Source of the DNA: a virus
Lineage: Duplodnaviria; Caudoviricetes
Length of the DNA stretch: 59,566 bases
IMG/VR virus record: IMGVR_UViG_3300046796_000573
Location: 1-59,566 of that record
Strand: one strand, 5' to 3'
Each line of letters starts with the position of its first letter. The first letter of the stretch is position 1. Under the pieces are notes generated by a model. It was not told the origin of the DNA, searched no databases, and saw nothing but the letters and a program-made list of their open reading frames with translations. Positions 8,188-56,005 of this stretch are shown here, piece after piece. A program made the position numbers and the translations under genes.

Positions 8188-8200
8188 AAGGTAGTTCGCG

Positions 8201-8593: not shown

Positions 8594-8628
8594 CCACCAC
8601 GGCGCGCGTTTGAGCTACGCTCCGCCGC

Positions 8629-9482: not shown

Positions 9483-9492
9483 GATCGCGGAC

Positions 9493-31403: not shown

Positions 31404-31405
31404 GG

Positions 31406-31879
31406 CTACGCCTCCACCCCAGCGCTGCGGCGCTGCACGCAGGTGACGCACGGGCAGTGCACGTCCCACCATTCCGTCTCCGCGTCGGCGAAGGCGTCGT
31501 TCAGCTGCTTCTGCACCTTGGCGATCTCCGGCGGGATGTGCCCCACCGTGCGGGCCTCGCCGAGCTTGGTGTCGCCCACCACGCGGCCGACGATGGCGCC
31601 CAGCAGGTTCTTCGCGATGGGCGCTAGCTCGATGGCCGCGATCGCGCTCAGCAGCGTCAGCCGCGCCGTGCTGGGCAACGCCTGCCCGCGGGCGGTGATC
31701 ATCGTGGTGCAGTGGATCACGCGCCACACGTCCCGCGCGTACGCCGCACCGGAGCGCGCAGCTGCGGCGCCCAGCTTGGGCAGCATCACCCGCAGCTCCT
31801 CGGTGGGCGTGTTCTCGTCGATCGTCACGGTCCAGTCTTCGAGCACGCCACCGGCCTGCTCCTCGTGCATTGCTTCCAT
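31406..31879 (-). CDS. Hypothetical protein
   Basis: AGGAG RBS; C-term HCPCVTC. Confidence 0.6.
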   Translation of the reverse strand: MEAMHEEQAGGVLEDWTVTIDENTPTEELRVMLPKLGAAAARSGAAYARDVWRVIHCTTMITARGQALPSTARLTLLSAIAAIELAPIAKNLLGAIVGRVVGDTKLGEARTVGHIPPEIAKVQKQLNDAFADAETEWWDVHCPCVTCVQRRSAGVEA

Positions 31880-37021: not shown

Positions 37022-39430
37022 CTACGAAGCCACCACCTCTTCAGCAGCGGCATCCGTGGCGGCCTGCGCGTGCTCGAGCGTGACGTACTCGAGCGGCCTG
37101 GGCTTGCTGCCGCCAGCGCCGGGCACGCCCTTGGTGCCCCACAGCAGCGCGCTGGCCTGGCGCTGCACGTCGTCCTCGCCGAACGCGTCGAGCTCGAGCA
37201 CCGTGTGCGTGTACCGGGTGATCGCGTTGACGACGGCGGCGCGGCTGACCGCGTGCACCTTGCGCGCGCTCGATGCGTCCGCTTCCCAGCAGGCCACCAA
37301 CGCGTCGACGTGCTCGTCGATCTTGCTGCGACCCGGCAGCTTGATGCGCGCGCGCTGCCCACCGCTCAGCAGCCCGGCGAAGATGCCCCGCACCGCGTCG
37401 GTGGTGTTACCGGGCACGGCGTCGTCGCTGATCAGGCGGGCCACCTCCAGCACGTCCTCCTCGCAGGCGTAGTCCCACGCCTTGATGAAGTGCCCGATCG
37501 CGTCGAGCGCCTTGGCGAAGTGCGCCTGGAACTTCCGCGCCAGCTCGTAGACGCTGCCCACGTGGCGGATCGAGAACAGGTCGCGCGCCTGGCGGTCGAT
37601 GATCGCCAGGTTCAGGCACAGGTTCTGCCACGCCACCGAGCTGCCGCGGATCGCGCCGCCACCCGTGTCGTCGGTGCGCACCACCACCCCAGCCTTGAAG
37701 AACTCCCCGGCCACGTAGTGCCTGGGCTGCACGTTGGAGTGGAACAGCGCCTCGAACCTGGCGCGCGTGCCGTCGTACGTGACGCCACCGCGGGCCTCGG
37801 GTGCGGTGCGCTTCAGCGCCTCGCCGATCGCCTCCGCCACCTTGTCCACGTCGAACGTGGCGTACCCCGGCGACACGGTGGCCCAGATGGATCGCGGCGT
37901 GGTGCCGTCGGCCCTGGTGACCGCGCGGGTGCGGAAGACCAGCGACTGGCGCTTGGGTGCCTTGTCGGCGTCCTTCGCGTGCGGGCCCGCCTGCCACGCG
38001 CGGCGCTCCTTGTCCTCGCGGTCGAGCATGAGATCCGACTGCGCGTTGACGTTGTGGGCGCGCAGCACCGGCGGGCACTTGTCCACCAGGTAGTATCGAC
38101 CGCCGTAGCCCAGGCGGCCGAACATGCTGCCCACCGCGTCGCTGGAGATCGGCATCTCGGTGGCCACCATCAGCGAGCCCGACACGCCGCTGGTGAGGCC
38201 GTCTGCGATCACCGACTGCGGCCGCACGCGCACCCGGCCGTCGCCGGCCATGCCCACGTCGCTGGCGTACACCAGCAGGTCGGCGCGCTTCTCGTCGTGC
38301 ACGCGCTGGATCACGTTGTCGCAGAGCACGGTGACGAGCGGCTTGGCGTCGTGCTCGGCGCGCGATGCCCGGGCCGCCTCCACGCCAGCCTCGATCACGC
38401 GCAGGCCACGCTCGTACACGGTCTGCTTCGGCTCGAAGCCTGCCGCGCGCGCCGCCTCCAGGTCGCGCAGCGATCGCGCCAGGCCGATCGCGTCCACGCC
38501 CTGGGCGATGCTCTCGCCGTGCGACTCGAGGTTCGTCTTCGACGCCTCGCCCTGCGGCACGGCCTGCATCGTCATCCCGCCACCGAGCTGCACGCCCTGC
38601 GGAGGCGGCACGGCCGGCGACACCACACCCTCGCTGTCGCGGTGCATCCACCCGTGCGGCTTCGCGGGCTCCTGCCCGAGCAGCACGATCACCCCAGCGT
38701 CCTGGAAACCCAGGTTGACGCGGCGCTCGCGCATGGCGCGCGCCTGGCGCAGCGTGAGCGGCTCCGCGTGGCAGTACTTGCCGCTGCCGTTCGGCGCGAG
38801 CTCGAGGGCCCACCGCGGCACGTCGCCCATGGGGTCCTCCGCGTGCGGGCTGTTCGGCAGGGCCGCCATGCTGCGATCGGTCGCGTCCTGCACCGCCTGC
38901 TCGCGGGTGTCGTGCAGGTCGGCACGGATGTCGTCGTCGTCGAGCGCGGCCACCTCGGCCTCCACCTGCTGCCGTGCAGCGCGCCAGTCCGTGGGGTCCT
39001 CGCCGCGCATCCACGCGGTGTGGTGCGCCGTGAAGGCTGCGCCGGTGGCGTTCTCGTCCACCGCGGCCGCAGCGCACCAGCGCGCGAACGACAGGCCGTT
39101 CACCTCAGAACGGGAGGTCGTCGACGTGGGCGACGTCGCCGAAGGGGTTCCATGCTGCGCGAGCACCGCAGTAGCAGGGCCAGAAGCCACAAGCAGGGCA
39201 ACGGCGCTCACCGCGGCGTGCTTGGCCTTGGCCGCTGCGTCCTGCGAGCTTGCGCCGTCGGCCATCGCCAGGTGGTAGGCCCGCTTTGCCGCGCGCTCGA
39301 CTGCCGCCTTCTGCGGGGCCGTCAGCTCGTCCTCGTCGCTCGCCCGCATCTTGGGGTCCACCTGCGCCATGATCCTGGCGATCGCTTCGTCGTTGGTCTC
39401 GGTCGTCGTCTCGGTGTTGTTCATGTCCAT
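37022..39430 (-). CDS. Large protein with C-terminal DUF932-like domain (true start may be GTG 39103)
   Basis: VSPGY, GVVVRTDDTGGGA, LCLNLAI, RHVG motifs; AAGGAG RBS at 39430; frame ambiguity at 39105-39215. Confidence 0.6.
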   Translation of the reverse strand: MDMNNTETTTETNDEAIARIMAQVDPKMRASDEDELTAPQKAAVERAAKRAYHLAMADGASSQDAAAKAKHAAVSAVALLVASGPATAVLAQHGTPSATSPTSTTSRSEVNGLSFARWCAAAAVDENATGAAFTAHHTAWMRGEDPTDWRAARQQVEAEVAALDDDDIRADLHDTREQAVQDATDRSMAALPNSPHAEDPMGDVPRWALELAPNGSGKYCHAEPLTLRQARAMRERRVNLGFQDAGVIVLLGQEPAKPHGWMHRDSEGVVSPAVPPPQGVQLGGGMTMQAVPQGEASKTNLESHGESIAQGVDAIGLARSLRDLEAARAAGFEPKQTVYERGLRVIEAGVEAARASRAEHDAKPLVTVLCDNVIQRVHDEKRADLLVYASDVGMAGDGRVRVRPQSVIADGLTSGVSGSLMVATEMPISSDAVGSMFGRLGYGGRYYLVDKCPPVLRAHNVNAQSDLMLDREDKERRAWQAGPHAKDADKAPKRQSLVFRTRAVTRADGTTPRSIWATVSPGYATFDVDKVAEAIGEALKRTAPEARGGVTYDGTRARFEALFHSNVQPRHYVAGEFFKAGVVVRTDDTGGGAIRGSSVAWQNLCLNLAIIDRQARDLFSIRHVGSVYELARKFQAHFAKALDAIGHFIKAWDYACEEDVLEVARLISDDAVPGNTTDAVRGIFAGLLSGGQRARIKLPGRSKIDEHVDALVACWEADASSARKVHAVSRAAVVNAITRYTHTVLELDAFGEDDVQRQASALLWGTKGVPGAGGSKPRPLEYVTLEHAQAATDAAAEEVVAS

Positions 39431-40117: not shown

Positions 40118-40428
40118 CGCCAGGCCTCGCCCTTCAGCCACCCGCGCTCGCCCGCGTTGCGCACGTAGCCGCCTTCCATCAGACGGCCCAGCGCCTGCCA
40201 CACGCGCCGCTCCTGGAGGCCGGTGGCGGCCGCGATCTCCTCCGCGCGCAGGCCCCACCCGTGCTTCGCGAGCACTTCGATCGTGCGGATCTCGTGCTCC
40301 GAGCGCTTCCGTGCGGCCTGCGCGTTGCGGCGCGTGCGGCGCCTGTGCTGCTCGAGGCAACGCTCCGCGAGCGTGGCCCAACCGCCCGCGACGATCGCGG
40401 TGCTCACCGTTCTGCACGTGGTCGTCAT
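40114..40428 (-). CDS. Winged-HTH protein with Arg-rich N-terminal segment
   Basis: EEIAAATGLQERRVWQALGRLMEGGYV; RRRTRRNAQAARKR. Confidence 0.65.
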   Translation of the reverse strand: MTTTCRTVSTAIVAGGWATLAERCLEQHRRRTRRNAQAARKRSEHEIRTIEVLAKHGWGLRAEEIAAATGLQERRVWQALGRLMEGGYVRNAGERGWLKGEAWR

Positions 40429-41171
40429 GACGTCGCTCCGATCTGTCGCAGTGTCTCTTCGCGCCAGGCCATCGCGTAGCGCGCGCAGTTGGCGCAGCTG
40501 GCGTGCTCGCACCCGTGCAGGGGCTCGGCGCGGCGCGCGTCGTAGCTCCACGCCAGCGAGTCGCTCGAGGCCAGCAGTCGTCCTCCTGGTGATGCCAGTC
40601 CGGTGCGCTTGAAGCCGAACCCGTGCAGGCGCAGGCCCTCGTCCGCCAGCCACGCCAGGAGGAGCGAGGCGGACACCGTGTTCTGCCGGCGGCACACCGT
40701 GCCCACGCCCACCAGCGGCTCCGCCAGCAGGTCCACGCCGGCAGCGGTGTACGCGTCCACGTGATCCAGGTAGTCGCCGCGCGCCCAGCCTTGCAGCACG
40801 GGCACGATCGGCAGCTCCGGCGCCAGCGCGCGCAGCTCGAGGTAGTTGGCCAGCGTGCGCGCCTGGTGCTCCGCCACGGTCAGCCCGGTGCGACGCAACA
40901 TCTCCGGCTCGCACATCCAGTCCTGTGGTGCTGCCCAGGCCAGCGAGCCGATGTCGTCGCGGTACCGGCGCACCTGCGCGACGTAGGCGCGTGCGTCGAG
41001 CTGCCACGCGCCATGCATCGACAGCTCGGTGAAGCCGCCGCTGTCCAGCGCCCACGTCGCAGCCGCACGGGGCAGGCGCTTCATCGTCTCCAGCCGGCGG
41101 CGCGAGACGAACAGCGGCACGCCCAGCGTGGCCAGCCAGTTGACCTGATGCGTGCCCAGGTAGAACGTCAC
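40425..41171 (-). CDS. dpdA: DpdA-like (TGT-fold) deazaguanine DNA transglycosylase
   Basis: WALDSGGF, PQDWMCE, PVLQG, VGVG, LHGFG, SSDSLAW motifs characteristic of TGT/DpdA. Confidence 0.75.
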   Translation of the reverse strand: MTFYLGTHQVNWLATLGVPLFVSRRRLETMKRLPRAAATWALDSGGFTELSMHGAWQLDARAYVAQVRRYRDDIGSLAWAAPQDWMCEPEMLRRTGLTVAEHQARTLANYLELRALAPELPIVPVLQGWARGDYLDHVDAYTAAGVDLLAEPLVGVGTVCRRQNTVSASLLLAWLADEGLRLHGFGFKRTGLASPGGRLLASSDSLAWSYDARRAEPLHGCEHASCANCARYAMAWREETLRQIGATS

Positions 41172-41605
41172 AGCAGCCTCCGCACGCGCAGGCCACGGTT
41201 CACGTCCACGTGCTCGCCGATCTTCAGCGCGCGCACCTGCTCCACCACCTCGGGCGTGTCCGCGTTCGCCTCGACGAACTGCGACAGCGTGCACTTGGTG
41301 CGGGCGCACTCGTCGCTGTCCACGATCTCCAGGAACGGGTCCGCGCCCACGCCCACCACGTCGAGCATGCCCTGGTCGTTCATCTCCTCCAGCAGGTCGC
41401 GCACGTCGGAGGCCGCACCGCGCACGCACCAGCGCAGGCGCAGCTCGCCGCCCAGCGTGGTCGGCTTGGCCACGTCGTGGTGGAGCTTGTCCACGCCGAC
41501 CATGCGGTGCTCGAGCACGCAGTCGAAGTCGCGCGCCAGGTCTTCCAGGCGCACCTGCGCGGCAGGCGTTGTCGGCGCAGGCACCAGGCGGATCGTGTCG
41601 CTCAT
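41168..41605 (-). CDS. Hypothetical protein
   Basis: Coupled. Confidence 0.55.
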   Translation of the reverse strand: MSDTIRLVPAPTTPAAQVRLEDLARDFDCVLEHRMVGVDKLHHDVAKPTTLGGELRLRWCVRGAASDVRDLLEEMNDQGMLDVVGVGADPFLEIVDSDECARTKCTLSQFVEANADTPEVVEQVRALKIGEHVDVNRGLRVRRLL

Positions 41606-41892
41606 CGCGGGAGCCCTTCGTGCTTCGCGGCGTCGTACGGCTCGCAGGCGACCAGGCAGTCGGGGTGCTTCTCGCTGGCCGCCTTCGCCACGCGGTCGGC
41701 GATGTAGCGCCGCTCGAACGGCCCGTAGGCCTTGACCACGCGGCCCAGCGTGCAGCCCGTCTCCGGGTCCACGGGGCCGCCGTGCATCGTCCAGCGGATC
41801 ACCATGGTGCGCACCGGCACCAACGACGGCGGCGTCGTATGGCGCGCGGCAGCGAGCTCGCGGCCCCAGGGCAAGCGGTTCGCGTTCGCCAT
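41602..41892 (-). CDS. Hypothetical protein
   Basis: Coupled. Confidence 0.5.
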   Translation of the reverse strand: MANANRLPWGRELAAARHTTPPSLVPVRTMVIRWTMHGGPVDPETGCTLGRVVKAYGPFERRYIADRVAKAASEKHPDCLVACEPYDAAKHEGLPR

Positions 41893-42425
41893 CACGCCAC
41901 CCCTTCCACGCTGAGCGCGCGCTTGCACGGCGCGGTGCGCTCCAGGTCGGCACGCAGGTCGCCAAGCAACTGGGCCCGCTCCACACGGCACAGCGTCTCG
42001 TCGCTGCGGGCCGCTGCGATGTCCTGCACCACGCGGCAGCGCTTGCAGGTGCACGGGTCCAGCACGGCCAGGCGCTCCGCTGCGTCGGGCCCCAGCAGGG
42101 CGCGCACCAGCACGCGCAGGCTGCGCTTCGCCTCGCGCAGGCGCAGGGCGCCGTCGTCCACGCGGCGCTGCTGCACCCGGCGCTGGTCCGCGTCGTCGGC
42201 GATCCTGCCGGCGGCCACGTCGCGGTCGTCGAGCTCGATCGATCGCTGGTCGCGCGCCAGTAGCGTGCCCAGCTCGTCCACGCGCTCGGCCTCGTCCAGC
42301 AGGGCGCGCTCGCCCGGCCTCGTCACCAGGCTGGTGATGCCATCGCCGAGATCCACCTGCCCACACGACAGCGCACGCGCGACTTCCGCGTGCACCGCCT
42401 CCCACCACTGCGTCGATCGCTTCAT
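41892..42425 (-). CDS. Hypothetical protein with CxCxxC
   Basis: PCTCKRC; coupled. Confidence 0.55.
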   Translation of the reverse strand: MKRSTQWWEAVHAEVARALSCGQVDLGDGITSLVTRPGERALLDEAERVDELGTLLARDQRSIELDDRDVAAGRIADDADQRRVQQRRVDDGALRLREAKRSLRVLVRALLGPDAAERLAVLDPCTCKRCRVVQDIAAARSDETLCRVERAQLLGDLRADLERTAPCKRALSVEGVA

Positions 42426-42874
42426 CGTGCGCTCCACTTCTGGTCCGGTCCGAACGGGTTCGCCTTGCCCTGGTCATGCTTCGCGCGCCCGGTGCCGCCG
42501 CACGCCGGGCACTCGATGGACGTCTCGTTGTTGACGCCTTCGCCCTTGCAGGTGGGGCAGCAGCGGCCCTCGCCCTGGGCGTGCCGTGCGCAGCAGTGGA
42601 TCGAGATCACGCGGTCGCCGGGGATGTCGTGCTTGGCCTTGGCCATCGGCGAGAACGGGCTCCAGCTGCGGCCCCGCACGCGATCGCTGGCCGCGTCGAT
42701 CCGCGCGGCGTGCTCCACGTCGATGACGGGCACCTGCACGCGGTGCAGCCCGGGCCTGCGCGCCGTGGTCACCCACGGGTCGCCGATCACCTGGGCTTCG
42801 AACCTGCGCCCGTTGGCCAGCTGCACCACGATCCGCGCGCCGGTGCGCAGCGCCAGCAGCTCGCGGGCGGTCAC
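42422..42874 (-). CDS. Protein with DnaJ-type CxxCxGxG zinc finger
   Basis: CPTCKGEG and CPACGGTG. Confidence 0.6.
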   Translation of the reverse strand: MTARELLALRTGARIVVQLANGRRFEAQVIGDPWVTTARRPGLHRVQVPVIDVEHAARIDAASDRVRGRSWSPFSPMAKAKHDIPGDRVISIHCCARHAQGEGRCCPTCKGEGVNNETSIECPACGGTGRAKHDQGKANPFGPDQKWSAR

Positions 42875-44363: not shown

Positions 44364-45337
44364 CCTGGACGGTGGCGGAGCTCCGTGCTGTGCTGGCCCT
44401 GCCCCTGGACGACGACCGCCTGCGGGTCATGGTCGTCCACCTGGTCGGACCCCCCGAGGCACCACCGGCACCGGTGGCAACCAACCCAAGGCGGGCAGCT
44501 GCGGGTAGGAAGGGTGGCCAAGCCAGGGTCCGAAACGCCCAAGCCAGCCCCCAAGCCAGCGAGGCAAGCCAGCCAAGCCAGGACCCAAGCCAGCCCCCAA
44601 GCCAGCCAAGCCAGCGCCAGGCCAGCCCCCTCGCGGTCTCCAGTGGAGATCTCTCTTCTCTTGCAGGATCTGAGGGAGATCAGAGCTCAGAAGGAGAGGG
44701 AGAGTGCGAGAGGGAGAACCCTACCGCAGCTAGCTTGCAAGCAAGCCAGCCAAGCCAGGCAAGCCAAGCCAAGCCAGGCAAGCCAGCCAAGCCAGGACCC
44801 AAGCCAGAGGACCCCTGGGGCCTGGTGCCCACCGGCCAGGATCCCGACGCGCCCAAGGCGGTGGCCAAGGCACCGAAGAGCGCCAAGCCAGACCTCGCCC
44901 TGGCTTGCCTGGAGGAGCCCGAGCGGATCGCCTACGAGGTGATCATCAGCGACGAGAGTCTGGCGCCGATCGTCCCGCGCCCTGCCGCCTGCGCCCGTGA
45001 CCTCTGTGCGATCGGCCCAGGGGTCGACGTCGCCATGGAGATCCGCAAAGCAGGTGCCTGGCTGCGCTCGCACCCGGAGCAGCGCAAGTCGCTAGGCGCG
45101 GCGTACCTTGGGCGCTGGATCACCAGGGCGCAGGAGAGCGCGCGCCACCGGCCCACGCTGGCGGCCCAGGCGCAGCGCCTCCGCGCGGTGCCACCGCCAC
45201 GCGACGACGGTGCACCGCCGGCCACACCTGCCGAGCAGCGCGCCGTGGACGAGCTGCGCTCGAAGGGCAGGCCCACCGACGAGGAGCTGATGGCGCCCAT
45301 GGTGATCCCTGAGCACCTGCGCGGGGCCGCGTCGTGA
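44360..45337 (+). CDS. Putative replication initiator (lambda O-like position)
   Basis: AAGRKGGQAR motif, internal DNA repeats, directly upstream of DnaB. Confidence 0.6.
   Translation: MTWTVAELRAVLALPLDDDRLRVMVVHLVGPPEAPPAPVATNPRRAAAGRKGGQARVRNAQASPQASEASQPSQDPSQPPSQPSQRQASPLAVSSGDLSSLAGSEGDQSSEGEGECERENPTAASLQASQPSQASQAKPGKPAKPGPKPEDPWGLVPTGQDPDAPKAVAKAPKSAKPDLALACLEEPERIAYEVIISDESLAPIVPRPAACARDLCAIGPGVDVAMEIRKAGAWLRSHPEQRKSLGAAYLGRWITRAQESARHRPTLAAQAQRLRAVPPPRDDGAPPATPAEQRAVDELRSKGRPTDEELMAPMVIPEHLRGAAS
44519..44891 (+). repeat. About 15 CAAGCCAG direct repeats, putative iterons/origin
   Basis: Two clusters (44519-44614, 44742-44807) plus one at 44884, flanking a purine/pyrimidine-skewed spacer. 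Confidence 0.75.
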
Positions 45338-46749
45338 GCGCCGCCAAGCGCGTGCCGCACCTCCAGCTCGTCTCGCCGCCGACCGTCGCCGGTAAGCTGC
45401 CACCGCACGACCTCGAAGCAGAGGCCGCCGTGCTGAGCGCGTGCCTGCTGAAGCCCGCGTGCATGGACGAGGTGGCGCGCATGCTGCGGCCCGAGCACTT
45501 CTACTCGGAGGCGAACCGCCTGGTGTGGACGGCGATGCTCGCGATCGCTGAGCGCGGCGCACCGATCGACGTGGTGCAGGTGGCGAGCGAGCTGCGCGAC
45601 CGCGACCGGCTGCCGCAGACTGGCGGCACGGCGTACCTGGCGCAGATCGTCGATGCGACGCCCGCGATCGCACACGTGGTCGCGCACGCCACCACGGTGC
45701 TGCGCAAGGCACGCGTCCGCGCCACGATCGCGGCGATGCAGGTGGCCGTCGCCGAGGGGTACAACGACCACGGCGAGGACGAGACGTGGATGCGCGACGT
45801 GCCCATCCGCGTGGAGCAGGCGGCGCAAGCAGGCGCGGTGCTCCAGACCAGCCGCACGATCTTCGAGGCTGGCGAGGAGATGACCGCCGCGATCGAACGG
45901 ACGCGCGCGCTGGCCGAACTGGGCGTGCGGCCCGGGCTCGACGTGGGCGACCCGAACCTTCAGAAGCTGACCGGCGGCCTGCACGAGGCCGAGGTGACCA
46001 TGCTCAGCGCGCCCACCAAGGGCTTCAAGACGACGCGCGCGATGGCCATGGTGATGGCGGCCGCCAGCAGCGTGGAGCGCTACATCGACGAGGGGCAGGA
46101 GAAGCAACGGCCCAACGGCGTGGCAGTGTTCGAGCTCGAGATGACCGACACCGAGCTGGCCATGCTGGCCGCTTGCCAGGTGGGTGGCGCCGACCGCGAG
46201 CGCTTCCGCCTCGGCACGGCGACGCCTGGCGATTACGACAAGCTGTTCGCCGGCAAGCACGGCTTCGAGAAGCTGCCGATCATCATCGACGCGCGCACCG
46301 ACCTGACGATCGACACGCTGCGCGCCGCCGTGCGCGAGGCCCGCGTGAAGCTGTGGAACAAGTTCAAGGCGCCGCTGCGGCTGGTGGTGATCGACACGGT
46401 GCAGCTGCTGGCCACCAAGGGGAACACCGACCCCGACGCGATGCAGGGCTTGGTGGACGCAGCCGGCGCACGCATCCGCGAGCTCAGCCTGGAGAAGGAG
46501 TTCGCGCGCACCAGCTGGCTGGTCCTGTCGCAGCTCAACTCGCAGGGCCAGATGCGCGGCAGCCGCGCGCTGGAGCAGCACTGCACGTCGTGGTGGGACC
46601 TGCGCGTGGTGGACGACGACTCGCCCCAGGCGCGCGACTACATCAAGGTGGCGCGCATCACGGTGAAGCTCCAGCGCTCCGGCAAGCAGGGCAGCGACGT
46701 AATCGCAGCTGCGTGGCTGAACACCATTACCGGGCGCGTGTACGGATGA
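45334..46749 (+). CDS. dnaB: Replicative DNA helicase
   Basis: LPPHDLEAEAAVL N-domain, LTGGL, VVIDTVQLL, LSQLN, RGSRALEQ; Walker A degenerate (APTKGFKT). Confidence 0.9.
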   Translation: MSAAKRVPHLQLVSPPTVAGKLPPHDLEAEAAVLSACLLKPACMDEVARMLRPEHFYSEANRLVWTAMLAIAERGAPIDVVQVASELRDRDRLPQTGGTAYLAQIVDATPAIAHVVAHATTVLRKARVRATIAAMQVAVAEGYNDHGEDETWMRDVPIRVEQAAQAGAVLQTSRTIFEAGEEMTAAIERTRALAELGVRPGLDVGDPNLQKLTGGLHEAEVTMLSAPTKGFKTTRAMAMVMAAASSVERYIDEGQEKQRPNGVAVFELEMTDTELAMLAACQVGGADRERFRLGTATPGDYDKLFAGKHGFEKLPIIIDARTDLTIDTLRAAVREARVKLWNKFKAPLRLVVIDTVQLLATKGNTDPDAMQGLVDAAGARIRELSLEKEFARTSWLVLSQLNSQGQMRGSRALEQHCTSWWDLRVVDDDSPQARDYIKVARITVKLQRSGKQGSDVIAAAWLNTITGRVYG

Positions 46750-48212: not shown

Positions 48213-48595
48213 CCGCCGCAGCATGGTGCCGACTGGTGCTGCCGCTTCTGCTCGTCGTTGGCTGCGACGTGCCGGAGATCGCAGCCGAGCCTGGGCCGAC
48301 CACGGTGGCGCTCGCACCCGCGCCCAGCTGCCGCACCGAGCCGATGCCCAGGTGGCTGACGGGCACGACGGTGGACGTCGACGCGAACGAGGTGGGCATC
48401 GCCTCTGTCCGCTGCGACGCCGGCACCAAGCTGGTCACGGGTGGCTGCCGCTCGGCGGGCAACGTGGGCGACCTGGTGATCGTCGAGAGCACGCCGCTCG
48501 AGGACGAAGGGTGGCGCTGCGCTGCCCGCGCGTGGGATGCCGGCGCGACGCACCTTGTCGTGTCGATCGTCTGCGAAGGGTGGCCGGAGCCATGA
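48209..48595 (+). CDS. Lipoprotein
   Basis: Lipobox LVVGC; CDAGTKLVTGGC Cys-rich domain. Confidence 0.6.
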   Translation: MTAAAWCRLVLPLLLVVGCDVPEIAAEPGPTTVALAPAPSCRTEPMPRWLTGTTVDVDANEVGIASVRCDAGTKLVTGGCRSAGNVGDLVIVESTPLEDEGWRCAARAWDAGATHLVVSIVCEGWPEP

Positions 48596-48984
48596 CCACC
48601 GACGACGTGAAGCAGAACGCGCCGGCAGCACCGCAGCGCAAGCTGGTGATGGGCGACGCGGAGCTGCGCCGCTACGCGAAGCAGATCACCGGCGTGGACG
48701 CGACGCTGGAGTGGATGAGCCCGGGGGACGCGCAGCTGCGGCTCCAGGCGCACAAGCCGACGGCGACGCTGATCGAGCACAAGCACCCGGCGGCCGTCGT
48801 GCTGGTGATGACGAGCGGCTCGGAGTCGTGGGCGCTCGGTTCGGTGGTGGATACGCCGCACCACCGCGACGTCGTGCGGGCGCAGATGGCGTGCTCGCTG
48901 GTGCACGAGCGCGACAAGTGCACGTGTAACGGCGGCGTCTGCGCGGCGTGGCGGCGCGAGCTCGGGCGCCTGCGCGGCAGCTGA
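48592..48984 (+). CDS. Hypothetical protein
   Basis: ATGA coupling; C-term CTCNGGVC. Confidence 0.55.
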   Translation: MTTDDVKQNAPAAPQRKLVMGDAELRRYAKQITGVDATLEWMSPGDAQLRLQAHKPTATLIEHKHPAAVVLVMTSGSESWALGSVVDTPHHRDVVRAQMACSLVHERDKCTCNGGVCAAWRRELGRLRGS

Positions 48985-49019
48985 AAAGGCGAACGCCCCG
49001 TCGTCGGGACGGGGCGTTC
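48985..49019. terminator. Perfect 12-bp hairpin, putative terminator
   Basis: GAACGCCCCGTC-gtcgg-GACGGGGCGTTC with upstream A run (U tract on - strand). Confidence 0.65.
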
Positions 49020-49086
49020 ATGCGACCGACAGCTGGCTGGCCTGGAGCGGGCAGAGGGACCGAAGGTGCGCCACCAAGGAGTAGCG

Positions 49087-49920
49087 ATGGCTAAGGCGAA
49101 GCGCAAGCCGCACGTGAGCGGCGAGGTGGAGCTGGTGGAGCTGGCAACGGTGCGGCCCAACGGGTGGAACCCCAACGAGTGCGACGCGCACACGCTGGCG
49201 TCGATCGAGCGCGGCTTCACCGAGGAGGGCTGGCTGAAGTCCCACGCGCTGACGATCTGGCGCACCGACGAGAAGGGCGTGGAGAAGCGCCTGATCATCG
49301 ACGGCGAGCACCGGTGGGAGGTGGGCACGCGCCTCGACATGAAGCACGGCCCGGGCATGTTCATCGACGGCATCACCGAGGCGCAGGCCAAGGCGCTGAC
49401 CATCAAGCTGGACAAGCGGCGCGGCGCGTTCCTCGCCGACCCGCTCGCCGCACTGCTCGCCGAGCTGCGCGCCACGTTGAACAGCGACGACCTGGCGCAG
49501 GAGCTGGGCTTCGCGCCGGAGGAGCTGCTCAAGGCGCTGCCCAGCCCGGAGAACCTTGCCGACGGCAGCGCGTTCCCACCGAAGCCGCCGGCACCAGGGC
49601 CGAACAACGTGAACCCAACGCAGGGCGCGGGCAGCCCGTACACGCGCGTGGTGCAGCTGTACCTGTCGATCGACGACCACGCCGCGTACCACGGCACGTA
49701 CGGCGGCGCGTACCTGGGGTTCCCGGAGTTCTTCTGCGGCGTGGACATGCGCGACGGCGACGCGATCCTGTTCGACCCGCACGCGTGGCACGCCGTGACC
49801 GACTTCGAGGACAAGGGCGACGACGCGGAGCGGATCAGCGTCGTGTACTACCTGCGCTCGAGGATCGACCAGTGCCAGACACCGGAGCTCGAGCTCCAGA
49901 GAGCGCAGGCTGCACGATGA
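49087..49920 (+). CDS. ParB/Srx-like domain fused to C-terminal fragment of a TET/JBP-type 2OG-Fe(II) oxygenase
   Basis: PNGWNPN, IIDGEHRW; then GTYGGAYLGFP...RDGDAILFD.HAWH..T...RISVVYYLR; HxD absent. Confidence 0.7.
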   Translation: MAKAKRKPHVSGEVELVELATVRPNGWNPNECDAHTLASIERGFTEEGWLKSHALTIWRTDEKGVEKRLIIDGEHRWEVGTRLDMKHGPGMFIDGITEAQAKALTIKLDKRRGAFLADPLAALLAELRATLNSDDLAQELGFAPEELLKALPSPENLADGSAFPPKPPAPGPNNVNPTQGAGSPYTRVVQLYLSIDDHAAYHGTYGGAYLGFPEFFCGVDMRDGDAILFDPHAWHAVTDFEDKGDDAERISVVYYLRSRIDQCQTPELELQRAQAAR

Positions 49921-50705
49921 TCGTCATCCCCTCACACCGTAGATGCGATTCGCTGGCGGCCATCGCCCTGGCGTGGCTCGCGTCTACCGACGTCCCGCTG
50001 AGCGAGGTGGTGGTCGTCGTCAGCGACGAGGCCGATCGCGCCGAGTACAGCGCCCGCCTGCCGGTGCGCGTGGTGCTGCCGCCGCAACGCCAAAGCACCG
50101 GGCTGACCGACAAGCTGAACGCCATCCACTACGGCATGGGCGACCGCGAGCTGGTGCTGCTCGAGGACGACATCGTTGTGTGCGGCGACGATCGCAAACC
50201 AATCACCAAGCTTCAGCGCGTGCTGGACGAGGGCGCCGAAGCGATTGCCGGCGGTGGGCTTTGGGGAGTCGCCAGCTCGTCCAACCCATTCTTCTACGGG
50301 CGGCCAGGTGCGGGCTTCCGCTTCATCGCCGGGTTCATCTGGGGCTCCCGCGGCAACGCCGATCCCGAGCTCGCATGCACGGTGCCGGTGAAGGCCGACT
50401 ACGAGCGCACCTGCCGCTACTATCGGCGGTTCGGGACGCTGCACAGGGTGGGCGGTGTGGGGGCCAAGGCCAAGGCCAGCTACGCGCTCGCCGGCGGCAT
50501 CCAAGCAAACCACACACACGAGGCCCGCCAGGTGCTGGAACGGCAGGCCGTGCTCGATCTCTGCCAGGCGTTCCCGCACTGGCTGGCGCCCAACGAGCAA
50601 CGCAAGAGCGGGTTCCCCGAGCTGCGGCTGCTCAAGGCACCGGCGAGCGCACCGGCGTATCCGCCTGCACCGTTGGAGGCTTGGCCGTGCGGCTGGCTGC
50701 TCTAG
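49917..50705 (+). CDS. GT-A glycosyltransferase (TET-associated/GREB1-like)
   Basis: IVIPSHRR, LLEDDI (DxD-like), LWGV...NPFF, KADYERT, GGIQ. Confidence 0.75.
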   Translation: MIVIPSHRRCDSLAAIALAWLASTDVPLSEVVVVVSDEADRAEYSARLPVRVVLPPQRQSTGLTDKLNAIHYGMGDRELVLLEDDIVVCGDDRKPITKLQRVLDEGAEAIAGGGLWGVASSSNPFFYGRPGAGFRFIAGFIWGSRGNADPELACTVPVKADYERTCRYYRRFGTLHRVGGVGAKAKASYALAGGIQANHTHEARQVLERQAVLDLCQAFPHWLAPNEQRKSGFPELRLLKAPASAPAYPPAPLEAWPCGWLL

Positions 50706-51418
50706 GGCACAGCGGCTCCAGCGTGCGCAAGGTCGGCCCGCTGGTGGTGAAGACGGGCCCGCTGCGCATGCTCGAAGGCGTGGCGAAGCAGCGGGCGAAC
50801 CCCAGCGTGCGGCTGCCGTCCGTGCCTGTGGTGGCAGCGTGGGCGATGGGCGATCGCGGCGTGGTGGTGATGCGCCACCAGGCTGGCCTCGCCGCCGTCG
50901 AACGCGTGGACGTGGCGCGCACCGCAGCGCACGCCGCGATCGCCTACGTGCGTAGCAACGTGCTGCCCGGCAGCGTGTCGGCGTGGCGCCTGGCCGAGCG
51001 CCTGGTGGACACCGTGAAGACCTGGCGCGCCAAGTCGGTGGCAAAGGCGCTCGCCACGCTGAGCCTGCCCGCGGGCCGCTGCCACGGCGACCTGACGCTC
51101 TCGAACATCATCGTGGAGGGCTCGCGCGCCCACGTGCTGGACTTCGCGTCGCTGCCCATCGAGAGCCCAGCGATCGACGCGTGCAAGCTGCTCCAGGACG
51201 CGGTGCACGGGTGGGCGCTGCGCATCGCACCGCGGATCGCCGACGAGCGCGCGCTGAACGCCGCGTGCGAGGTGCTGCTGCCGGCGCTCCAGCGCCTGCC
51301 GGGCTACAGCACCTGGGGCGACGTGCTGATGGCGTGGACGCTGCTGCGTGCGTGGCCGTATGCATCGCCCGAGCTGCGGGAGTGGATCGAACGGGAGGTG
51401 GACGCGTGCATGTTCTGA
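50687..51418 (+). CDS. APH/choline kinase-fold phosphotransferase
   Basis: GHSG loop, CHGDLTLSNI, VLDF, D..KL.QD. Confidence 0.8.
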   Translation: MRLAALGHSGSSVRKVGPLVVKTGPLRMLEGVAKQRANPSVRLPSVPVVAAWAMGDRGVVVMRHQAGLAAVERVDVARTAAHAAIAYVRSNVLPGSVSAWRLAERLVDTVKTWRAKSVAKALATLSLPAGRCHGDLTLSNIIVEGSRAHVLDFASLPIESPAIDACKLLQDAVHGWALRIAPRIADERALNAACEVLLPALQRLPGYSTWGDVLMAWTLLRAWPYASPELREWIEREVDACMF

Positions 51419-52089
51419 TCGTCACGGCAGCGGGCACGTCGGACAGGTTCGGCGGCGAGACGAAATGGGCCCTGCGCGACCCGCGCACCGGTCACTCGCT
51501 GCTGCACTGCGCAGTGGACGGCGTGAAGGGCTGGGACCGCCTGGTGGTGGCCGTGCGCCGGCACCCGAAGGAGCACCCGGCCGAGGACTGGGCCGTGCGC
51601 GAGCTGGGCATGATGGGCGCCGACGTGGTGAAGGTGGGCGAGACGGCCAGCCACGCGGAGACGGCGCAGAAGACCATCGCCCTGGCCTGCCGCCCGGACG
51701 ACGTGGTGACCATCCGCGACGCGGACAACCGCGTGGACCTGCACCTGCGCAGCTGCAACGCCATCGGCGTGTACGTGCCGAAGAGCGGCCGCGACCGCCT
51801 CCGCACCGACGCGAAGGGCAAAGCGGGCGTCCGCCGCAGCAAGAACCGCGTGACGAACATCTTCGAGCGGCGCGGCAACGCCGACGCGTGCTTCAGCGTT
51901 GGGTGCATCACGTTCGCCAGCGCAGAGCAGGCCCGCGTCCTCCTGGACGACGGCGTGGCGCGCATCAGCACGGGCATCCAGCGGCTCATCGACCGCGGCG
52001 AGCAGGTGGCCGCCATCGAGAGCAAGGCGTTCGACGACTGGGGCACACGCGCCGCGTGGGAGCGGTACGTGGCAGAATCGAAGGCGTGA
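51406..52089 (+). CDS. Sugar-phosphate nucleotidyltransferase (NTP_transferase)
   Basis: TAAGTSDRF...KW, TASHAET, RDADN, DWGT. Confidence 0.8.
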   Translation: MHVLIVTAAGTSDRFGGETKWALRDPRTGHSLLHCAVDGVKGWDRLVVAVRRHPKEHPAEDWAVRELGMMGADVVKVGETASHAETAQKTIALACRPDDVVTIRDADNRVDLHLRSCNAIGVYVPKSGRDRLRTDAKGKAGVRRSKNRVTNIFERRGNADACFSVGCITFASAEQARVLLDDGVARISTGIQRLIDRGEQVAAIESKAFDDWGTRAAWERYVAESKA

Positions 52090-52307
52090 GCAAGCTGGCC
52101 GAAACACCGCCCTGGATCGCGCTCGAGCGGGACGCAGCGCATGCTGGGGCACGTGGCGAGATCGAGCGGTCGGGCATCTTGATGTGGGCCGCGTGGCGCT
52201 CGCGCAAGACGTGTCGGTGCCTGATCCCCGAGCGGCCCGGGCAGCCGTTCGCGGTGGTGCACCGGGCCTGCCCCGTCCACCCGTTGCCCGTGCGGATGCT
52301 GACGTGA
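52086..52307 (+). CDS. Small Cys/His protein
   Basis: CRC...CPVH; coupled. Confidence 0.5.
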   Translation: MSKLAETPPWIALERDAAHAGARGEIERSGILMWAAWRSRKTCRCLIPERPGQPFAVVHRACPVHPLPVRMLT

Positions 52308-53260
52308 GCAAGCCAGGCGAGAAGTTCCCCGGCCTCGACGCCATCCGCGCCAGGGCTGCGCGCCCAGCCAGCGAGAAGAAGCGCGGTGGCAAGGCGCCCA
52401 GGCCGTACACCGCGGAGGAGCTCGCCGCTCTGCCGCCCAGCGTGCGCAAGCGCGTGCTCGCCCGCAGCACGCCCACCATGACCAAGGACGGCGTCGTCCA
52501 CGTGGGCCGCCCCAGCAAGCTCACGGAGGAGCTCATCGCCGAGGTGGTGAAGGGCATGGTCAGCGGTGCACCCGTCCAGATCGTTGCCGGTGCGCACGGC
52601 GTCAACCGCGACACGTGCAACGAGTGGCTCCGGCACGGCCAGCACCCCGAGTACGCCGGCACCCTGGAGCAGAAGTTTGCGGTCGCCGTCGCCCGGGCGC
52701 GTGACGAAGCGCTCTATGGGATGGCAGCTCGCGTCCGCACCGGTAGCCGAGGATGGCAGGGGAGCGCCTGGCTGCTGGAGCGGCTGGAGCGGGACACCTT
52801 CAAGCCGCCCACGTCGCGGCAGGAGATCTCCGGGCCGGGTGGCGGCAGCATCCAGATCACCCCGATGACCTGCACCCTGCCCGCCGAGGTGGGAGCGGAT
52901 GGCCGTGTGCTCGAGCTCGCGGCGACGTCGGTGGCTGCCGGCGTCAACGGGCTGGGCCTGGTGCAGGGGGACGCTCTGCCGAGCGGAGAGCCAGAAGCCG
53001 CGCGCGAGGGGGCCCCCAGCAACGGAGCGGACCACGGATCGCTCGGAGATCGCAAGGCGACCGCCTCGAATGGGGGCTTGACAGGTTTTGCCTACACCAA
53101 CGGCCACGGCACCAACGGCACGTCCGCGTACACGGCGCCCGAGCACCCGCTGTGCCCCAGCTGCGGGCTGCCCATCGAGGAGCGCCCGCTGCACCTGGTG
53201 GACGGCGTGGCCCACCACCTTGGGGGCTGCCCCGACCCGCCCACCAGCAACGAGGAGTGA
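52304..53260 (+). CDS. Terminase small subunit-like protein
   Basis: GRPSKLT HTH, WQGSAWLLER, EISGPGGGSI. Confidence 0.75.
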   Translation: MSKPGEKFPGLDAIRARAARPASEKKRGGKAPRPYTAEELAALPPSVRKRVLARSTPTMTKDGVVHVGRPSKLTEELIAEVVKGMVSGAPVQIVAGAHGVNRDTCNEWLRHGQHPEYAGTLEQKFAVAVARARDEALYGMAARVRTGSRGWQGSAWLLERLERDTFKPPTSRQEISGPGGGSIQITPMTCTLPAEVGADGRVLELAATSVAAGVNGLGLVQGDALPSGEPEAAREGAPSNGADHGSLGDRKATASNGGLTGFAYTNGHGTNGTSAYTAPEHPLCPSCGLPIEERPLHLVDGVAHHLGGCPDPPTSNEE

Positions 53261-53264
53261 CCCC

Positions 53265-53528
53265 ATGATCTGCCGCGCCGTGCACCACCTTCAGGACCAC
53301 TGCATCGTCGTGGATGCGGTGCTCGATCGCGACGCCAAGCCTGGCGACCGCTTCCAGGACCCGCGCGGCAACGTGTGGACGGTGCGCGCCTTCGAGGAGG
53401 ACACGCGCGTCCGCGACCGGAAGGGCGACCGGGCAGGTATGGCCCTGGAGGAGCACCACCGGCAGCACCTCACCGGGCAGGAGGGCCCACGCAAGGGCGA
53501 CCTCCTGGTGTGGCTGCCGCAGGCGTAG
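53265..53528 (+). CDS. Hypothetical protein
   Basis: GAGGAG RBS. Confidence 0.5.
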   Translation: MICRAVHHLQDHCIVVDAVLDRDAKPGDRFQDPRGNVWTVRAFEEDTRVRDRKGDRAGMALEEHHRQHLTGQEGPRKGDLLVWLPQA

Positions 53529-53633
53529 GATGGGTGGTCCGTAGCTCGAGCTCAATTCGGGACAGCTCGTTCAGGAACGCCCGGCTCCGTGGCGTGCGGA
53601 CACGGGCCCCATGGTGGGTGTAGGCTCCCGGGC

Positions 53634-54002
53634 ATGGCAGCTCCGTGGAGACTCATCGGCCAGGCAGACGGCGCAGGCGGCAACCTCGGCGGCGAAAACT
53701 CGCCGAACACCACGCCACCCGTGGCCTCGCGCATCCACGCGATCTCCGCCAAGGAGCAGGGCCAGGGCGTCAGCGGGTTCCTGGCCATGTGCCTCGATGG
53801 CACCTCGCAGCAGATCACGCTCTGGTCGCGCGAGACGCGCACCGGGCTGTGGATTCAGCTGCACGCCACCGCAACGGCCACGCTCTACACCGGCGGCCCG
53901 GCGGTCAAGACGGCCCTGTTCGACGTGCGCGGCCACGACATCTTCGCGCGCCTCGAGACGAACACCGGCAACGTCAAGCGCATCGCGTGGTGCCTGGTCT
54001 GA
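53634..54002 (+). CDS. Hypothetical protein
   Basis: TAGGCT-N7-ATG. Confidence 0.6.
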   Translation: MAAPWRLIGQADGAGGNLGGENSPNTTPPVASRIHAISAKEQGQGVSGFLAMCLDGTSQQITLWSRETRTGLWIQLHATATATLYTGGPAVKTALFDVRGHDIFARLETNTGNVKRIAWCLV

Positions 54003-54007
54003 CGCTC

Positions 54008-54238
54008 GTGGTCGCGCGGCTGCTCATCGCGGTGCTGCTGCTGGCCGTGTCCGTGGGGCTGCTGGTGTTCACGCTGCGCATCGGTGTCGAGCCTCGAGCG
54101 GCGACACGCGTCGCCCGTCGACGAGCGACGTCGCCCAGGTCCTCGCGCAACGTGGGCACGCCCTACCGCAGGCCCGGGCGCAAGGAGCCACCGCCACCGC
54201 CGGCGGACATGGGCCCACCCAAGCGCGTGCGCTGCTGA
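54008..54238 (+). CDS. Small membrane protein
   Basis: N-term TM helix, basic tail. Confidence 0.45.
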   Translation: MVARLLIAVLLLAVSVGLLVFTLRIGVEPRAATRVARRRATSPRSSRNVGTPYRRPGRKEPPPPPADMGPPKRVRC

Positions 54239-54492
54239 TGCACGAGCCGCGCAAGAGCACGGGCGAGATCCCCCTGCACGCGGACATCGTGCGGGACGCG
54301 CTCCACCGCCTGCGCCAGGTGCCAGGCAAGCGGGCCGGCGACCTGTTCCAGGAGGGCTGCGTCGTGATGGCGCTCGCCGACGAGGCAGGCCGCCAGCCCA
54401 AGGGCGCGCCCGAGCGCAACGTGGCGTACCGCGAGCTGCTGGAGTTCCAGCGCAAGGCGCTCGCCTTCCTGGCCCAGCCCGAACCGGAGTAG
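54238..54492 (+). CDS. Hypothetical protein
   Basis: TGATG coupling. Confidence 0.5.
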   Translation: MHEPRKSTGEIPLHADIVRDALHRLRQVPGKRAGDLFQEGCVVMALADEAGRQPKGAPERNVAYRELLEFQRKALAFLAQPEPE

Positions 54493-54568
54493 GCTCGAGG
54501 GCGACGGCGGCGCGGTGCACTGACCTAGCGGTGCGCCAAACGCTGCGCCGCCGTTGCTATCCCCACCC

Positions 54569-56005
54569 ATGGCCGACGGCAGCACCTGGACACCCAAGGC
54601 GGGGCCGCAGACCGTCTTCCTGGCGTGCGGCGCCTTCGAGGCGTGCACCGGTGGCATCGTCGGCGGTGGCAAGACCACCAGCCTGCTGGTCGGCGCGCTG
54701 CGCCACGTGCACCGGCCCGGCTACGCGGCGCTGATCCTGCGGCGCCACTACACCGAGCTGACCAAGGCCGACGGCCTGCTCGAGCGCGCGTGGAACCTGT
54801 ACCCGCGGTGCGGTGGCCTGCCCGCCAACGGCGGCCTCACGTGGGTGTGGCCCAGCGGCGCGCGCATCGACCTGGCGGGCATGGACGCCGAGACGGACAG
54901 GTTCAAGTTCGACGGCAGCGCCTACCAGTACGTGGCGTTCGACGAGCTCCAGACCTTCGCGCTCATCCAGTACACGTACCTGGCCAGCCGCATGCGGCAG
55001 AACGACCGCATCCTCGCCAGCGGGCCGCCCATCCCGCTGCGCCTGCGCTCGACGGCCACGCCCGGCGGCATCGGTCACGATTGGGTGGTCGCGCGCTTCG
55101 GTCCGTGGATCAGGCTGCACGATCCGGAGTACGACGGCCCGCGCGCGCAGCCTGGCGCGTGGCTGCACTATCGGATCGACCCCACCACCGAGGGCGAGGT
55201 GCTGTGCGGCGCCGACCACCCCGAGGCGATGAGCCGGTGCTTCATCCCCACGGTGATGCTCGAGTACGTCGGCGCGGAGTACCGGCGCGCGCTCACCCTG
55301 CTGGACCCGGTCACGCGGGCGCAGCGCTTGTACGGCGACTGGCTGGTGCGCCCAGGCGCTGGGCTCATGTTCCAGCGTGCGTGGTTCACCCGCGAGCGCG
55401 GGCAGCTGCTGGACCGCATGCCGCACCCGGCCGACGTGCTGTTCCGCGTGCGCGCCTACGACTTGGCAGCCACGCCCAAGAAGACGAACGAGCAGCGCGC
55501 CGCCACCGTGGCCCTGCGGATGGCGGTGCTGCGCAGTCGCCTGCTGGTGGTGGAGCACGTGCGCCGCCTGTGGGGCAGGCCGCACGAGGTGGAGCAGATG
55601 ATGAAGGAGCTGGCCGTGAGCGACGACGCGTTCCACGGCGGGCCGGTGCTCGTGTCCTTCCCCATCGACCCGGGGCAGAGCGGCATCGCCCAGCGCGACC
55701 AGCTGGCCAAGGTGCTCGAGGGGCACAGCTGGCGCGCCACGCCCGAGACCGGCGACAAGGTGGACCGCGCCAAGCCGCCCAGCGCCAGCGCCGAGGGCAA
55801 GCGCCTAGCGATCGTGAAGGGCGACTGGAACGAGGAGTTTCTGCGCGAGGCGCACGACTTCCCCATCGGCAAGCTCAAGGACCAGATCGACGCGCTGAGC
55901 CGCGCGCACCGCGAGTGCACCCGTGGCGGTGGTGCTGCGACGGCGCGGGCCGGTGGCGGCGACGGCAAGCGCGTGAGCATGCATCGGCCCGGTGGCGGCT
56001 TCTGA
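54569..56005 (+). CDS. Terminase large subunit
   Basis: Walker A GGIVGGGKT, Walker B VAFDEL, TATPGG, nuclease RAYDLA and DQIDALS. Confidence 0.92.
   Translation: MADGSTWTPKAGPQTVFLACGAFEACTGGIVGGGKTTSLLVGALRHVHRPGYAALILRRHYTELTKADGLLERAWNLYPRCGGLPANGGLTWVWPSGARIDLAGMDAETDRFKFDGSAYQYVAFDELQTFALIQYTYLASRMRQNDRILASGPPIPLRLRSTATPGGIGHDWVVARFGPWIRLHDPEYDGPRAQPGAWLHYRIDPTTEGEVLCGADHPEAMSRCFIPTVMLEYVGAEYRRALTLLDPVTRAQRLYGDWLVRPGAGLMFQRAWFTRERGQLLDRMPHPADVLFRVRAYDLAATPKKTNEQRAATVALRMAVLRSRLLVVEHVRRLWGRPHEVEQMMKELAVSDDAFHGGPVLVSFPIDPGQSGIAQRDQLAKVLEGHSWRATPETGDKVDRAKPPSASAEGKRLAIVKGDWNEEFLREAHDFPIGKLKDQIDALSRAHRECTRGGGAATARAGGGDGKRVSMHRPGGGF

Follow-up and report, generated by a model that had tools for sequence, protein, structure and literature searches.

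A complete genome of a soil phage, 59,566 bp long (IMG/VR record IMGVR_UViG_3300046796_000573, Duplodnaviria; Caudoviricetes), hereafter called the window, by which we mean the whole stretch of DNA that was analysed, carries at 49087-52307 a cluster of five translationally coupled genes, A to E, that runs into the small terminase gene. The first four encode a ParB-like protein joined to the remnant of a TET/JBP-type dioxygenase (gene A), a TAGT-family glycosyltransferase (GT; gene B), a small-molecule kinase of the APH/protein-kinase fold (gene C) and a protein with the fold of sugar-1-phosphate nucleotidyltransferases (NTases; gene D). As a joint explanation, the chance seems to us somewhat better than even that what we see here is the decayed form of a module for post-replicative thymine hypermodification, and that it no longer works in the window phage. 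In its intact form, for which a related viral locus (L011) serves as the model, the ParB-like activator and the TET/JBP-type dioxygenase would convert thymine of the phage DNA to 5-hydroxymethyluracil (5hmU) and the TAGT-family GT would then glycosylate the 5hmU, using a dedicated nucleoside diphosphate (NDP)-sugar donor that would be supplied by the APH-fold kinase and the NTase, the latter usually being fused to a HAD domain. In the window phage, about 0.7 kb has been deleted in frame and residue 202 of ParB now adjoins about residue 210 of TET, so that no 5hmU should be made and the intact GT, kinase and NTase would be left with no acceptor.

By its family scans and alignments, gene A (49087-49920, plus strand) is an in-frame deletion fusion of ParB and the C-terminus of TET. 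Its residues 1-202 (49087-49692), which match the ParB-like family phrog_2159 over residues 11-148 (E 2.7e-14), comprise an N-terminal domain of the nucleotide-binding type, a linker and ~17 residues from the start of the C-terminal domain. This part is 64% identical to a whole, free-standing ParB of 232 residues (P0003); the alignment stops about 17 residues after the C-terminal domain begins, and what would follow of that domain is deleted in gene A. The other 75 residues (203-277; 49693-49920) match Tet_JBP (PF12851) in part, covering positions 108-163 of 164 in the profile (E 0.0054, 16-17 bits against a cut-off of 34.9), and are 68% identical to a whole TET protein of 284 residues (P0070), the aligned part being residues 210-283 of the latter. 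The initial annotation, made from the DNA letters alone, had labelled the first four genes as a ParB::TET fragment, a glycosyltransferase, a kinase and a nucleotidyltransferase; the family scans bear out all four labels, and "TET fragment" is literally correct, what remains being the last third of Tet_JBP. In four related loci (L007, L008, L010 and L011), ParB and TET stand next to each other as two separate genes, and the whole proteins P0003 and P0070 are from contigs with the same stated length (16,950 nt). At the junction in gene A (residue 202/203, nucleotide 49692/49693), about 32 residues of ParB and the 209 N-terminal residues of TET, roughly 0.7 kb, are gone and the frame is kept.

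The TET remnant keeps the distal His and Arg of the family and has lost the HxD iron motif. The HxD column is present in eight of nine aligned sequences and gapped in gene A, and the seemingly invariant His that gene A shows there comes from the ParB sequence AAYH and is aligned by coincidence. Gene A thus lacks the combination of iron triad and complete double-stranded beta-helix by which TET/JBP (5mYOX) 2OG/Fe(II) dioxygenases are recognised. It also lacks most of one of the two ParB domains: according to the main text of O'Toole et al. (PNAS 2026, PMC13229309), ParB-dependent phage dioxygenases oxidise thymine and need both the N- and the C-terminal ParB domain. With the loss of most of this domain and of the TET core, ParB and TET would both be disabled in the window phage. 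No other TET is encoded in the complete genome, in which the sole Tet_JBP match is that at 49693-49857, and thymidylate-synthase-like hydroxymethylases (PF00303) gave no match in it at E<=1. Without the TET core, and with no second source of 5hmU in the complete genome, the GT should lack its substrate, and the module is probably inactive here. The new glycosylated nucleoside that the initial annotation had considered possible is thus not to be expected in this phage.

The fusion should also be considered in light of how the record was obtained. An assembly artefact, with the real phage having a whole ParB and a whole TET, is in our estimate the least probable of the explanations weighed here. 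It would fit the metagenomic origin of the data, the interruption within gene A (at 49485) of Logan contigs from the probable source run, and the different junction in a sister contig. However, a 783-nt Logan contig from a different sample (X4) matches 48939-49721 without a single difference and ends 29 nt beyond the junction, there is no repeat at the junction that might mislead an assembler, the reading frame is kept, and direct terminal repeats close the record. Exact matches to parts of the region are also found in Logan contigs of other soil samples.

The closest database protein to gene A, P0002 (289 residues), comes from this sister phage (P0002, P0075 and P0076; a contig of 30,894 nt). 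Its residues 1-78 are identical to those of gene A and its last 75 residues differ by one (R to G), while its middle is a TET core with HKD, where gene A has the remainder of ParB. Residues 1-78 of ParB are here joined to TET from about residue 73, in frame, at a junction different from that of gene A. Elsewhere in the sister contig, the NTase is at least 90% identical to that of the window, and the GT is 64% identical to gene B, with differences that are spread over the whole protein and lie between identical flanks. Taken together, these differences look like a swap of the GT cassette and an independent ParB::TET deletion. The different in-frame deletion and the 64% identical GT thus suggest that the locus is in flux in this lineage.

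Gene B (49917-50705, plus strand, 262 residues) overlaps gene A by an ATGA. An exhaustive HMMER search yielded 516 representative relatives at E<=1e-3, and TAGT is the sole family matched at this threshold by 49 of 60 aligned relatives. Of 16 relatives that were examined one by one, 12 reach E<=1e-3 with TAGT and seven exceed the cut-off of the family, and the profile made from the relatives of gene B finds the strong TAGT protein of Mycobacterium phage PRodriguez at 1e-66. All of the invariant residues of the family (R9, D84, D85, K159, D161, R164, R177, G193 and G194) are kept in gene B. With regard to a GT-A fold, which would call for an acidic DxD-type motif, D84 and D85 belong to an invariant E-D-D, and the PDB sequence matches of gene B to N-termini of GT-A enzymes were weak (E 0.3); PDB sequence searches with B, C and D gave nothing significant. 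Single-protein scans returned no confirmed IMG/VR relative of gene B and, likewise, none in metagenomes for its 64% identical relative, and a word-index homologue search for GT and NTase found only the window itself or the sister contig.

Members of the TAGT family are also recognised by genomic or covalent association with TET, and gene B directly follows the TET remnant. The survey of homologue neighbourhoods that had been proposed in the initial annotation found TET in 10 of the 11 IMG/VR loci retrieved with the GT, the 11th being cut at the GT. TET-TAGT fusions (P0093 and P0120) and a ParB-TAGT fusion (P0113) were found as well, and the closest relatives of gene B with context (30-37% identity; L004-L008, L011 and L017) all stand beside TET or a 5-hydroxymethyldeoxyuridine (5-hmdU) kinase. 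The DNA-hypermodification character that the initial annotation had given to the cluster, of the ParB/TET/GT kind, is supported. One of the 10 loci with TET, L009, has a 431-residue TAGT-TET fusion with the GT first (6778-8070), on a contig of 25% G+C and next to DUF5754 and DUF5872 proteins.

Gene C (50687-51418, plus strand, 243 residues) overlaps gene B by 19 nt and is preceded by GGAGG. Both the Pfam score and the catalytic motifs place it in the APH family: it matches APH (PF01636) with 31 bits, above the cut-off of 23.2, and has an intact K22, HGDxxxxN catalytic loop and D-F, with HGDLTLSN and LDF conserved in all three aligned kinase sequences. NCBIfam returned only sub-threshold kinase matches. 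Gene D (51406-52089, plus strand, 227 residues), which overlaps gene C by 13 nt and is preceded by GGGAGG, matches NTP_transf_3 (MobA-like) weakly (E 0.0043, 17.7 bits against a cut-off of 27). Its N-terminal loop, AAGTSDRF...K20, is conserved in four of four sequences. An AlphaFold2 (AF2) model made from these four sequences reached a mean predicted local distance difference test (pLDDT) score of 80 and a predicted template modelling (pTM) score of 0.82, and the Foldseek check on it, as suggested in the initial annotation, returned folds of NDP-sugar pyrophosphorylases: GalU (UDP-glucose pyrophosphorylases), inositol-1-P cytidylyltransferase, GlmU, RmlA and HddC, with template modelling (TM) scores of 0.67-0.72 and E of about 1e-9. 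With its loop, its Lys and its fold, gene D thus belongs to the sugar-1-phosphate nucleotidyltransferases. The language-model look-alikes of C and D are viral APH/RIO-like and MobA-like clusters.

To place the two genes in context, a search was seeded with the kinase and neighbours were counted within 6 kb of it in the resulting 66 viral loci (IMG/VR, L019-L084). NTase was found in 64 of these and HAD in 58, all of them among the 64, and in 57 of the 66 the kinase is directly followed by the NTase. The GT, as detected with the profile of gene B relatives, was found in only four loci and TET in two. Scans seeded with the NTase gave three contigs only. Flanks were annotated for 19 of the 66 loci, chosen for diversity, with 150 of 189 candidate open reading frames (ORFs) scanned. 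A Pfam glycosyltransferase lies within 3.2 kb in 16 of the 19, in five cases TAGT (L019, L025, L034, L037 and L072), and the remaining three have WavE, GT47-like or GDP-mannose dehydratase matches. Epimerases/dehydratases, DegT aminotransferases, FdtA and methyltransferases are also common in these flanks. Among viruses, the pair of APH-fold kinase and NTase::HAD has a wide distribution, which extends to contigs of 150-435 kb and to metagenome-assembled genomes of giant viruses, and it is nearly always located inside glycan-synthesis islands (GT2/4/6/7/10/11/25/61, GDP-mannose dehydratase, DegT, FdtA and methyltransferases). In literature searches aimed at the DNA-modification context, we found no description of this pair.

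The frequent adjacency of kinase and NTase, the single-protein fusion of the two in a further relative (L006, see below), the glycan islands and the fold of gene D support the reading of C and D as a cassette for synthesis of a nucleotide-sugar donor. The proposal of the initial annotation that the two make an activated donor for the GT is therefore supported. The same neighbourhoods can, however, be taken to suggest that GT, kinase and NTase glycosylate virion proteins or the host surface, and that the adjacency to ParB and TET is incidental. Indeed, the majority of kinase-NTase::HAD cassettes belong to glycan islands of a general kind (with GT2, GT4, GT6, GT11, GT25, epimerases and aminotransferases) that have no TET, and, as noted, TET is close in only two of the kinase loci. 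Against this, TAGT is the only Pfam family in most of the gene B relatives, members of TAGT are covalently fused to TET or ParB, and all but one of the GT-seeded loci contain TET. We thus regard a non-DNA role as improbable.

Another possibility is that kinase and NTase tailor the DNA-bound sugar, by phosphorylation and then nucleotidylation, instead of making the donor. APH-family enzymes phosphorylate sugar hydroxyls of aminoglycosides. In their preprint, Pyle et al. list an APH phosphotransferase under "additional sugar modifying enzymes". The pair, however, is mostly found away from DNA-modification genes, gene D has the fold of a sugar-1-phosphate nucleotidyltransferase, and the fused HAD phosphatase of the relatives suits a route from sugar-phosphate to NDP-sugar. 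Such tailoring is therefore very improbable in our view, and donor synthesis stays the preferred function for C and D.

The nature of the acceptor can be approached through the relatives in which the module is intact. L011 has GT, kinase and NTase in this same order next to an intact ParB and TET. L005 has them next to TET, and in L017 their neighbours are a 5-hmdU DNA kinase helical domain and a second TAGT-like GT. Each of these three NTases bears a C-terminal HAD phosphatase domain. In L005 the kinase homologue (1465-2059) is split over two frames, owing to either a frameshift or an error of sequencing, while the rest of the TET-GT-kinase-NTase::HAD cluster is intact. GT, kinase and NTase::HAD also stand beside TET in L006 and L072. 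In L006, which is a provirus record, the order is TET - amino-acid:DNA transferase - oxidoreductase - P-loop kinase 3 - GT - NTase/HAD/APH protein, and the last of these (7737-9569) is a single protein of 611 residues with NTase, HAD and APH parts by Pfam. The NTase::HAD profile aligns to it with hhalign at 98.5% (E 1.4e-15, 288 columns), and the kinase part aligns weakly (E 5.5e-4). Two kinds of thymidine hypermodification seem to be joined in this cluster.

From these neighbours we infer that the acceptor in the intact modules is likely to be 5hmU. The reading is based on the ParB partner, the 5-hmdU DNA kinase of L017, the amino-acid:DNA transferase and P-loop kinase of L006, and the thymine oxidation described in the main text of PMC13229309. 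The initial annotation had seen no C5-cytosine methyltransferase in the genome, and this was confirmed, as PF00145 has no match at E<=1 in the complete genome and none in five related viral records; a thymine-derived acceptor, one of those proposed at the time, is consistent with this absence. Likewise, C5-methyltransferases occur in only 6% of the ParB-dependent T-dioxygenase pathways according to the text of PMC13229309, which names GT, APH and HAD among the co-occurring domains.

The other acceptor that had been proposed, the deazaguanine inserted by DpdA, did not gain support, as nothing links the GT family to DpdA. The DpdA gene of the window (40428-41171, minus strand; PF23859, E 1.5e-91; phrog_1279) lies 8 kb away on the other strand, and there is no DpdA among the Pfam matches of the scanned neighbour ORFs. 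In the PRodriguez locus, gene 2 (L002, 813-1688) is annotated as a "DpdA-like tRNA-guanine transglycosylase". We rejected it as such a link, since it matches Tet_JBP (E 1.4e-4) and the TET profile (1e-31), and the annotation is probably a misannotation in Acadian-type phages. No family match to QueC, QueD, QueE or FolE was found among the 78 ORFs of the window that were scanned, and the precursor of the deazaguanine would thus come from the host or from unrecognised genes beside DpdA, where 41171-42437 gave no matches.

Several observations weigh against the decayed-module reading and need to be considered. The match of gene B itself to TAGT (PF20691; E 3.6e-4, 21 bits) is below the 27.5-bit cut-off. 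In three very large viral contigs of low G+C (L025, L034 and L037), TAGT-family GTs stand beside kinase/NTase with no TET within 6 kb. A DNA acceptor is thus not guaranteed for the whole TAGT family, and the acceptor in these three may not be DNA. The structure model of gene C is poor (pLDDT 46). Gene D lacks the C-terminal HAD phosphatase domain that most of its relatives carry, and the 84 ORFs of the window that were scanned include no HAD. In four runs, whose cover is fragmented and of low depth, no independent Logan contig bridges the junction of gene A by at least 31 nt on each side; the joints that were listed have sides of 21-22 nt and probably come from other organisms. Finally, genes B, C and D keep their invariant residues and their tight coupling, which would fit either a recent deletion or a retained function. 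As to the contigs named above, L025 and L034 carry a separate HAD_2 gene.

A retained function would mean that the module is still active, with the GT using another modified base, 5hmU that a co-infecting relative provides in trans, or a target other than DNA, and with the ParB::TET-tail protein being a tolerated or even useful DNA-targeting remnant. In addition to the preserved residues and coupling of B, C and D, this would suit the fact that both known deletions of the lineage are in frame, and GT relatives are found with no TET nearby in L019, L025, L034 and L037. On the other hand, the closest GT relatives with context are all beside TET or 5-hmdU kinase, and searches of the genome turned up no other enzyme that might make an acceptor. 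We consider continued activity unlikely, although less so than the other alternatives discussed above, and prefer a decayed module with a recent deletion.

If the module is indeed decayed, one may go further and propose that the intact relatives write a base-J-like glycosyl-5hmU with a phage-made sugar, not one taken from host UDP-hexose, whose NDP-sugar would come from a kinase/phosphatase/nucleotidyltransferase cassette that viral glycan islands share, and that the lineage of the window switches this mark off by recurrent in-frame ParB-TET deletions, of which two different junctions are seen, while swapping its GT. This extension is tentative, and we would sooner bet against it than on it. 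Were it true, such a pattern of switching off would be expected where host defences directed at glycosylated DNA put the mark at a disadvantage.

Regarding the arrangement of the locus, the initial annotation had described overlapping, coupled genes after a hairpin and upstream of the terminase, and this was confirmed, with a fifth coupled ORF preceding the terminase. The hairpin has a perfect 12-bp GC-rich stem (48991-49002/49008-49019, plus strand) and lies between the stop codon of the upstream gene (48982-48984) and gene A. It folds with -28.5 kcal/mol (z -3.9), and none of 200 shuffles folds as well. The hairpin (48991-49019) has no T-tail and a terminator scan made no call there; a promoter scan of 48400-54600 found no sigma-70-like site. 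ORF E (52086-52307, plus strand, 73 codons) overlaps its neighbours by GTGA at both ends, and family and homologue searches with it gave none. By the second of these overlaps it is coupled to the small terminase gene (52304-53260, plus strand; phrog_4102, E 4.4e-12), and the large terminase gene follows at 54554-56005. The terminase also adjoins the TET-GT clusters of relatives (L002, L004, L007 and L010). At the DNA level, the whole cluster had no match in GenBank phages.

The genome, which has direct terminal repeats and ~70% G+C, carries morphogenesis genes of the phage Mu-like type (portal, Mu F, baseplate J and tape measure). Its plus-strand block leads from DnaB (45334-46749) through the modification cluster to terminase and portal, and an early block on the minus strand contains DpdA, a DUF5131 protein, a RecE-like exonuclease and an N6-adenine-type methyltransferase. 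The DUF5131 (Gp37/Gp68-type) protein is encoded at 30462-31451 on the minus strand (E 1.9e-68), with the methyltransferase nearby (29384-29971; phrog_111, 1.6e-16). In the replication block, an ORF of 802 residues with high G+C at third codon positions (37025-39430, minus strand) has no Pfam or PHROG match. In the tail-fibre region, a protein of 618 residues (21372-23225, plus strand) contains a GDSL lipase/acylhydrolase domain (E 1.2e-10) and may serve host recognition by deacetylating surface polysaccharides.

The locus and its intact relatives together predict a glycosylated thymidine with a possibly unusual sugar, made from a donor cassette of its own. This bears on the question of what is built on the 5hmU made by ParB-activated phage thymine dioxygenases, which were described in 2026. 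The window itself provides a natural TET-null allele with intact GT, kinase and NTase genes, and would exemplify the recent loss of a DNA modification by a phage that has DpdA as well.

Among known systems, the ParB-dependent thymine dioxygenase pathways (5mYOX, clade C1; O'Toole et al., PNAS 2026, PMC13229309) are among the most similar, as far as the main text describes them: a ParB-like gene precedes TET/JBP, there is no C5-methyltransferase, neighbours are of GT/APH/HAD type and the terminase is nearby. The window differs from them by its ParB-TET deletion fusion, which has neither the ParB C-terminal domain nor the dioxygenase core through HxD. Nucleotidyltransferases are not mentioned in the main text of that paper or in that of the preprint by Pyle et al. 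(10.1101/2023.12.21.572611), and open-literature searches found no characterised 5hmU GT with a nucleotidyltransferase. This kind of pathway was published in 2026 (PMC13229309); for the donor variant that contains a nucleotidyltransferase no description was found in the texts consulted.

Acadian-type mycobacteriophages have the series ParB - TET - TAGT - PIG-L deacetylase - P-loop kinase 3 - terminase, and Arthrobacter phage Klevey has ParB ... TET - x - GT - PIG-L. The window shares with these clusters the order ParB, TET, TAGT-family GT and the position before the terminase, and the GTs are 27-31% identical. They have a whole TET, PIG-L and the P-loop kinase, however, whereas the window phage has an APH-fold kinase and an NTase in place of the latter two.

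In the cytosine system of phages, built of C5-methyltransferase, TET and GT (Burke et al. 2021, PMC8256090; Pyle et al. preprint), a hydroxymethyl pyrimidine is likewise made by TET and glycosylated post-replicatively by phage GTs with NDP-sugars. This system starts from 5-methylcytosine made by the phage C5-methyltransferase and uses UDP-Glc or UDP-GlcNAc of the host, while the window has no C5-methyltransferase and has a dedicated donor cassette. Base J of kinetoplastids, made by JBP1/2 and a glucosyltransferase, follows the same logic of thymine conversion to 5hmU by TET/JBP and subsequent O-glycosylation, as summarised in the main texts of PMC13229309 and PMC8256090. It is, however, eukaryotic, uses UDP-glucose and has no ParB partner and no donor-synthesis genes, and the likeness drawn here is one of pathway logic.

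For the donor branch, the likeness is to kinase/phosphatase/nucleotidyltransferase routes to NDP-sugars and lies in the series of kinase, HAD phosphatase and NTP-transferase fold, with HddC being among the fold matches of gene D. Such routes include those of NDP-heptose (HldE/GmhB/HddC), AmgK/MurU and LicA/LicC. Compared with such routes, the kinase of the window phage is of the APH fold and the window copy has no HAD domain. Overall, the window probably holds the decayed copy of a system whose kind is known from the literature consulted, with a nucleotidyltransferase-containing variant of donor synthesis.

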